A stretch of DNA of 340 nt from Escherichia coli (GTDB taxonomy: Bacteria > Pseudomonadota > Gammaproteobacteria > Enterobacterales > Enterobacteriaceae): NCBI RefSeq assembly GCF_003334255.1, contig NZ_QOWU01000260.1; one strand, 5' to 3'. Shown here one piece after another: positions 1 through 340 of this stretch (positions within the stretch are counted from its first letter, which is position 1; every line of letters begins with the position of its first letter). The notes under the pieces were generated by a model. That model was not told the origin of the DNA, ran no database searches, and saw only the letters and a list, made by a program, of their open reading frames with translations. The translations under genes and the position numbers were made by a program.

Positions 1-340
1 AGAATTAGCACCTAATGCAACACTGTTTTTATTTGTTACTGTTGCCTTTGCCCCTAACGCAGTACCTTCTGTTGCATCTTTATCAACTTTGGCTCGGTTA
101 CCTGCTGCCGTGCCATATGTAGCCGTGTTATCAACAAATGCAACGCTTCCCAGGGCTGTAGATGCATTTGCATAAGCATATGTTCCCACTCCCAGAGCTG
201 TACTTTGTTTACCGTCCGCAGCAGCCCATGAGCCCACTGCTGTTGACGCTTTTTCTGTAGCCCTAGCACCGTTACCAACAGCTACTGAGAACTCACCAGA
301 GGCTTTCGCATCGCTACCCAGAGAAACCTTCCCATTCTCC
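1..340 (-). CDS. Internal fragment (both ends outside the window) of a large repetitive surface protein; most likely the head-repeat region of a trimeric autotransporter adhesin (YadA-like / Hep_Hag repeats), alternatively a phage tail-fibre-like protein with the same repeat type
   Basis: Minus-strand frame with codons on + strand 337..339 back to 1..3 is open across all 113 codons (hand translated); position 340 belongs to a codon that continues outside the window. The product is about a quarter Ala, with abundant Gly/Thr/Ser and no Met, Cys, His, Pro or Ile. It shows recurring S-[VT]-A-[VL]-G cores at 14-residue spacing (SVAVG, STAVG, STALG x2, GTALG, SVALG), matching the known YadA-like head repeat. 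The other two minus frames contain stops, and + strand frames are interrupted (tag at 6..8, taa at 13..15, taa at 173..175). Gene orientation puts the N-terminus beyond position 340 and the C-terminus beyond position 1. Confidence 0.8.
121..330 (-). repeat. Five tandem, degenerate 42-nt (14-codon) coding repeat units within the CDS
   Basis: In-frame units [14 protein letters not shown] / [14 protein letters not shown] / [14 protein letters not shown] / [14 protein letters not shown] / [14 protein letters not shown] occupy minus-strand codons mapping to + 289..330, 247..288, 205..246, 163..204 and 121..162. The units are similar at protein level but diverged at DNA level, e.g. aca gct ctg gga versus aca gcc ctg gga for T-A-L-G in adjacent units. 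Two further copies of the core (GTALG..., SVALGANS) lie at + 25..66 and + 1..24 after an irregular spacer. Confidence 0.7.

Follow-up and report, generated by a model that had tools for sequence, protein, structure and literature searches.

Low third-position GC, probably foreign in origin, in the passenger part of the Escherichia coli prophage gene eibD

The 340-nucleotide stretch of Escherichia coli DNA analysed here (the window; contig NZ_QOWU01000260.1 of RefSeq assembly GCF_003334255.1) is an internal piece of eibD, an adhesin gene of the phage P-EibD of strain ECOR-9, to which it is identical in 340 of 340 nucleotides (AF151675.1 1427–1766). The third codon positions of this piece are strikingly poor in G and C, and sliding analysis of their GC content (GC3) reveals a step inside the gene, so that the passenger part of the protein is encoded with an AT-rich third position and the C-terminal anchor with a GC3 like that of the host. 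We conclude that the window belongs to a prophage moron, the passenger of which probably carries a base composition foreign to E. coli on an anchor that is host-like. The eibD coding sequence spans AF151675.1 975–2510, and the window corresponds to its nucleotides 453–792 and thus to residues 152–264 of the 511-residue protein. The coding segment occupies the whole window (1–340) on the minus strand, such that codons 152–264 run from position 339 to position 1, while codon 151 ends with base 340. This 113-codon frame is the only one of the six that is free of stop codons.

Proteins of the Eib group are trimeric autotransporter adhesins, which show non-immune binding to the Fc part of immunoglobulins and mediate autoaggregation and chain formation (PMC5450701; PMC12511318). 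Chain formation requires the Eib head, which comprises the N-terminal domain, the beta-roll encoded by the window and the neck (PMC12511318; PMC5450701). The eibD gene, the structure of its product and its location in a prophage have been known since 2000–2011. That morons have an atypical composition is textbook knowledge; the GC3 step inside the eib genes is possibly a small detail that has gone unreported.

Base Composition of the Window

An earlier note on this DNA, made from the letters alone, had put the overall GC content at about 48.5% and the GC content of the third codon positions at about 28%. Recounting yielded the same values, with 165 of 340 bases (0.485) for the whole window and 32 of 113 (0.283) for the third positions, and GC1/GC2/GC3 of 0.575/0.593/0.283. 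The codon preferences described there were also recovered, since Thr is encoded by ACA in 9 of 12 cases, Ala by GCA (10) or GCT (9) in most of its 26 codons, and Gly by GGT in 8 of 15; these counts fit the minus-strand frame only, the note having named no strand. Further non-preferred codons in the window are TAT for Tyr (3/3), AAT for Asn (4/8) and GGA or GGG for Gly (5/15), as well as AGG, CGA and TTA. The three-base periodicity goes beyond chance, with a phase of GC at or below 0.283 arising in none of 20,000 base shuffles.

The size of the deviation becomes apparent when the window peptide is encoded with the codon usage of E. coli core genes, for which a GC3 of 0.573 ± 0.044 is expected, placing the observed value at z = −6.5. 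With host-typical codons this peptide would therefore have a GC content of about 58%, so that 48.5% is low for the peptide. The overall GC content masks the anomaly, since the head, with its many Ala, Gly, Thr and Ser residues, has GC-rich second positions. The suggestion that Ala and Gly inflate the first and second positions alike is thus only partly right: GC2 is indeed elevated (0.593 vs 0.411 in core genes), the excess coming from Ala, Gly, Thr and Ser, but GC1 is not (0.575 vs 0.595). More generally, a strong third-position anomaly can remain hidden under the overall GC content in proteins rich in these four residues.

Comparison With Flanking and Core Genes

As a core baseline, 70 long open reading frames (ORFs) were taken from two core regions of the chromosome of the E. 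coli strain that carries a 94.4% identical eibD homologue. Their pooled GC3 is 0.571, with a per-gene range of 0.444–0.658, and none of the 18,368 windows of 113 codons within them reaches 0.283, the minimum being 0.327. The neighbours of eibD in its own cassette behave like core genes, with a GC3 of 0.58 for orf-191D, 0.67 for orf-156D, 0.56 for orf-60D and 0.53 for the L0124D fragment. At the locus of the homologue in strain 99RCEF the lambdoid tail genes have a GC3 of 0.53–0.71, and hyaA-F, appCBA and etk of 0.55–0.70. Over the whole gene, eibD, eibC and the 99RCEF homologue reach 0.41–0.42 (0.416 for eibD). In the complete phage PhiR12_3 the structural genes mostly lie at 0.45–0.62, compared with 0.39 for the eib homologue. 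The earlier note had set the GC3 of the flanking genes as the test between an AT-rich host and a foreign origin, and with flanks at 0.53–0.71 the outcome favors foreign origin.

A GC3 Step Inside the eib Genes

Along eibD the sliding GC3 is 0.28–0.53 in the N-terminal 160 codons, falls to 0.23–0.33 in the head and neck (codons ~160–300), amounts to 0.38–0.47 in the stalk and rises to 0.55–0.62 over the final ~110 codons. This profile is shared by eibC, eibE and the homologues of 99RCEF and PhiR12_3, with heads at 0.21–0.31 and the last 110 codons at 0.55–0.60. A single change-point model was applied to these five genes, namely eibD, eibC (970–2484 of the P-EibC cassette record), eibE (970–2433 of the P-EibE cassette record) and the homologues of 99RCEF (14576–16033 of the locus) and PhiR12_3 (11588–13081). 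In all of them it places the step 100–117 codons before the stop codon, with a GC3 of 0.34–0.36 on the left and 0.58–0.61 on the right (permutation p ≤ 0.004), although the five genes are related and so cannot be counted as five independent cases. The contrast persists at 4-fold sites, where the head and neck have a GC3 of 0.28 and the C-terminal part one of 0.54, so that amino-acid composition is not its cause. The low-GC tract reaches from the upstream intergenic region, where AF151675.1 601–900 has 33% GC, to a point inside eibD. The eib genes are compositional mosaics, in which a passenger of foreign composition sits on a host-like anchor. Acquisition of a gene with atypical codon usage, as proposed in the earlier note, therefore applies to the passenger but not to the gene as a whole, the last 100–117 codons being host-like.

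Mosaicism is seen at another level as well. The P-EibC and P-EibD cassettes come from one strain, and their DNA is ~100% identical outside AF151675.1 ~990–1700, where identity drops to 62–97%. This patch of ~700 nucleotides encodes the N-terminal domain and most of the head, and it looks as if segmental replacement or gene conversion had taken place among paralogous prophage cassettes. In more distant eib copies 72–80% of the anchor residues are shared, compared with 47–53% of the head residues. The GC3 step of the eib genes can serve as a cheap marker of the boundary between passenger and anchor in mosaic adhesins, a use of modest value.

Prophage Context and Distribution

Along AF151675, orf-191D is followed by a stem-loop, eibD, a second stem-loop, orf-156D, orf-60D and an L0124-like phage gene. 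The two annotated stem-loops flanking eibD are located at 844–872 and 2535–2563, and a terminator-like site is found on the plus strand at 2544–2560. The product of orf-191D matches tail-fibre families in PHROG (E = 3e-79), and the core of orf-191, eib and orf-156 is common to the eibC, eibD and eibE cassettes. The 94.4% identical homologue of E. coli 99RCEF resides in a lambdoid prophage adjoining tRNA-Ser and the hya operon, where the order runs from gpFI through gpJ to tail-fibre remnants, a DUF4376 gene, the eib homologue, tRNA-Ser and the core hya/app operons. In PhiR12_3 (host ECOR13) a 78% identical homologue lies downstream of the tail-fibre genes, with lom nearby. Among 5,426 complete E. 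coli genomes 31 have a megablast match to the window, all of them chromosomal, and blastn against plasmids returned no plasmid DNA match to the window.

Morons are situated in the late region and usually have a composition unlike that of the phage, and for ECOR-9 EibD is given as a prophage-encoded protein (PMC8065619). The gene eibD has the position and the distribution of a phage moron, as the eib genes combine a location in the late or tail region of the prophage with a divergent composition and a patchy distribution. The second possibility raised by the earlier note, that of an acquired gene, is supported by these features, given its place at the end of the prophage late region, its patchy occurrence and a composition unlike that of the phage's own genes. 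PhiR12_3 contains, in addition, lom and two small genes before it (16907–18629), with a GC of 0.41–0.44 and a GC3 of 0.37–0.47; this lom block is a second compositionally distinct accessory block.

Head Repeats in Other Genomes

Low GC3 might be thought an intrinsic property of YadA-head repeats, but this was ruled out by repeats from Agrobacterium and from a high-GC phage, in which GC3 is host-like or higher. In the adhesin of an Agrobacterium pAt plasmid the repeats have a GC3 of 0.57–0.70 and the flanks of 0.62–0.73, and in a viral contig of 70% GC the repeats reach 0.86 compared with 0.75 locally. Conversely, head-like repeats in viral contigs of ~34% GC have a GC3 of 0.06–0.07 vs 0.15–0.18 in their neighbours. 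With their many 4-fold codons, YadA-head repeats mirror the bias of the local genome in a slightly amplified form, and in E. coli a GC3 of ~0.57 is to be expected of them.

Two E. coli IncF plasmids encode large adhesins of the YadA-like family (~1,440 residues; 1501–5820 of locus L009 and 6557–10882 of locus L010), each followed by an OmpA-family gene. The internal head repeats near the C-terminus of both proteins have a GC3 of 0.41–0.44, which indicates that the position in the mosaic, rather than the type of repeat, predicts GC3. The first of these plasmid loci (L009) contains, furthermore, an eib-like copy at 7001–8020, the annotation of which ("YadA C-terminal domain-containing protein") begins only at 7256. 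This copy is stop-free from 7001, where the tblastn match starts, through the head repeats, with 53% identity to the window, and is probably a truncated or mis-started gene. Another eib-like copy, in E. coli STEC639, was considered as a counter-example with normal GC3 and set aside, since it is a frameshifted pseudogene and the head in its correct frame has a GC3 of 0.475 over 101 codons, a value that is weak evidence either way. This unannotated gene (7942–9150 of locus L012) carries a frameshift between head and stalk, such that the head is read in frame with 8001–8303, but stalk and anchor with 7942–9150. The record in question, a non-mobilisable "plasmid" of 1.0 Mb, may be a chromosome fragment.

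Origin of the AT-Rich Passenger

The gene eibD is carried in E. coli as an accessory gene of the moron type just downstream of the prophage tail-fibre genes. Its passenger, comprising the N-terminal domain, the YadA-like head, the neck and most of the stalk, has, together with the upstream intergenic region, a base composition foreign to E. coli, such as a genome of ~36–40% GC would yield. The last 100–117 codons, for the terminal coiled coil and the beta-barrel anchor, share a host-like GC3 with the cassette neighbours. Identity, location, contrast and intragenic step are demonstrated here, and we infer, as the likely explanation, that the contrast reflects acquisition from a lineage of lower GC content. 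The GC content of the source was estimated by interpolation between pairs of locus GC and ORF GC3 (0.34/0.18, 0.35/0.23, 0.38/0.35 and ~0.51/0.57), from which a GC3 of 0.28–0.36 corresponds to roughly 36–40% GC, a rough interpolation rather than a measurement.

A more specific version, which we put forward tentatively and consider somewhat less probable than not, is that a lineage of ~36–40% GC supplied the passenger and the upstream region, which were joined near codon ~394 to an enterobacterial anchor. Phage fibre proteins with YadA-like heads might have been the donor pool, and the N-terminal heads of other E. coli trimeric adhesins might have been imported likewise. If so, GC3 steps would map the module boundaries of adhesin shuffling across lineages. 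In IMG/VR, four close eib loci show the same GC3 pattern (head 0.27–0.28). More distant head-like proteins occur there in low-GC phage contigs, with 33–46% identity to the EibD head and without the YadA anchor (L017 6957–10223, L018 and L019, the 34% GC contigs, and L020 174–1280). Their PHROG matches are confined to families of unknown function, and they may be fibre-like proteins built with the same beta-roll.

Several observations weigh against a foreign origin. A scan with the head alignment pattern over one genome per species (100,044 species) gave 148 matches but no confirmed relative, and a search for a donor with head and neck among 5.8 billion proteins gave 22 matches, of which the 20 that carry a source name are all partial proteins of E. 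coli; neither yielded a donor or a close relative of the head outside E. coli. A simple consensus scan found no sigma-70-like promoter on the plus strand upstream of eibD. The genome of ECOR-9 is not in the collections, so the core baseline stems from another E. coli strain, the homologue of which is 94% identical. Moreover, the N-terminal heads of the two IncF plasmid adhesins have a GC3 of 0.17–0.29, compared with 0.50–0.58 near the anchor, and the same gradient in these proteins could mean that the cause is a selective or mutational one specific to E. coli, and not repeated import. The gradient is also compatible with repeated import of distal passenger modules.

Finally, the codon adaptation index (CAI), calculated with Sharp-Li weights for E. 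coli, is unremarkable for the window. The CAI comparison suggested in the earlier note did not discriminate, since the window (0.308) and eibD (0.363) fall within the 0.20–0.39 of the phage and hya/app genes at the locus of the homologue. In the Sharp-Li table GCT/GCA, GGT, GTT and TCT are high-weight codons. For Ala, Gly, Val and Ser, E. coli prefers codons with T or A at the third position, and this makes up for the penalty that ACA, TAT, AAT, GGA/GGG, AGG, CGA and TTA incur. The CAI is thus a poor detector of GC3 anomalies of this kind in E. coli.

The same codon weights bear on an alternative to import, namely that selection within E. coli keeps the GC3 of the passenger low, either through preferred Ala, Gly, Val and Ser codons ending in T or A, or through pacing by rare codons that aids export and folding of the beta-roll. 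Such selection is unlikely, even though high-weight codons ending in T or A do leave the CAI unremarkable and the low-GC3 heads recur in two unrelated plasmid adhesins of E. coli. Clearly non-preferred codons are used along with the preferred ones (such as ACA for Thr), and the CAI of the window is far below the 0.64–0.78 of ribosomal protein genes. The head repeats of Agrobacterium and of the high-GC phage lack the AT-shift at third positions, and those near the C-terminus of the plasmid adhesins do not reach the low values of the distal ones, position predicting GC3. Furthermore, the low-GC tract extends into the non-coding region upstream of the gene.

Slightly less likely still is AT-biased mutation in situ, by which a weakly expressed and weakly selected prophage gene would have drifted to its present composition without import from a low-GC donor. 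Mutation is generally AT-biased in bacteria, codon selection is often relaxed in accessory genes of prophages, and no donor emerged from the species scan and the protein search, all of which would suit this explanation. However, the adjacent orf-191D, orf-156D and orf-60D have a GC3 of 0.56–0.67 and the 3′ 117 codons of the same transcript one of 0.61. With host-like neighbours and a host-like 3′ end, a mutational cause would have had to act up to a sharp limit within eibD and no further. In addition, the amino-acid identity of the passenger between paralogues (0.64–0.91, and 0.82–0.88 across the head) is high enough for purifying selection.

The other possibility of the earlier note, an AT-rich host of ~40% GC or lower whose codon usage the gene simply shares, can be dismissed. 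Its only support is the window GC3 of 0.283, a value that, on rough interpolation, a genome of ~37% GC would typically show. The exact sequence, however, belongs to a prophage of strain ECOR-9 of E. coli, every homologue with a name is from this species, and cassette, tail and core genes at 0.53–0.71 (core 0.571) refute an AT-rich host. The GC content of about 40% or lower given in the note is reasonable as an estimate for a donor, but not for the host.

Domain Organization of the Window

The part of EibD encoded in the window consists of YadA-like head repeats, which form a left-handed parallel beta-roll (residues 156–264; window 1–327, minus strand). Full-length EibD has five matches to Pfam PF05658 (YadA_head), at residues 156–176, 164–188, 178–203, 192–216 and 241–264, and the region is also covered by the match of the window peptide to chain A of the solved EibD structure (PDB 2XQH, E = 9.6e-57). 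Weaker matches were obtained to the head structures of BpaC (7O23) and of a Hep_Hag protein (3S6L), with E = 3e-7 to 4e-6. Outside the window lie the YadA anchor (PF03895, residues 453–511, E = 5e-16) and the N-terminal 27 residues, which from their sequence look like a Sec signal peptide.

The repeats are visible in the DNA as a direct-repeat family (D1) of three copies of 20 nucleotides with 70–80% identity, all on the minus strand. The reference copy (5–24) encodes S-V-A-L-G-A-N, the second (47–66; 70% identity to the reference) G-T-A-L-G-A-K, and the third (128–147; 80%) S-V-A-F-V-D-N. The copies are spaced by 42 and 81 nucleotides, and the 42-nucleotide spacing equals 14 codons and thus represents the period of the head repeat at the DNA level. 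On the plus strand, the frame at offset 1 (2–340), which shares its third positions with eibD, has one stop codon and no Gly, and the longest ORF starting with ATG, GTG or TTG comprises 28 amino acids. This antisense open frame is a by-product of codons rich in GCN, GGN and ACN and not a gene.

Comparison With Known Systems

EibD itself (AF151675.1, AAF63040.1, 2XQH) is the system to which the window belongs, the sequence being identical, with the window covering part of the head and neither the anchor nor the signal peptide. The other Eib paralogues, namely EibC and EibE of ECOR-9, the YadA-like proteins of the 31 genomes and the PhiR12_3 homologue, share the cassette, the low-GC3 head (0.21–0.31) and the anchor at 0.55–0.60, and differ from eibD in a DNA identity of 78–94% over the window. 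YadA of Yersinia and other trimeric autotransporter adhesins of type Vc secretion have the PF05658 head and the PF03895 anchor in common with EibD. What sets the Eib proteins apart from these is that they are encoded on prophages and that they bind immunoglobulin Fc (PMC5450701; PMC12511318). Among the plasmid-borne adhesins of this type found here, those outside the Eib group have at most 52% identity to the window. As to the genetic element, eibD resembles the lambdoid morons lom and bor in its late-region site beside the tail genes, in a composition unlike the phage backbone, in encoding a surface protein that benefits the host, and in the flanking stem-loops (PMC8065619). It differs from morons of the lom/bor type in that the anomaly covers the 5′ three quarters of the gene and the upstream region, instead of a whole self-contained unit.
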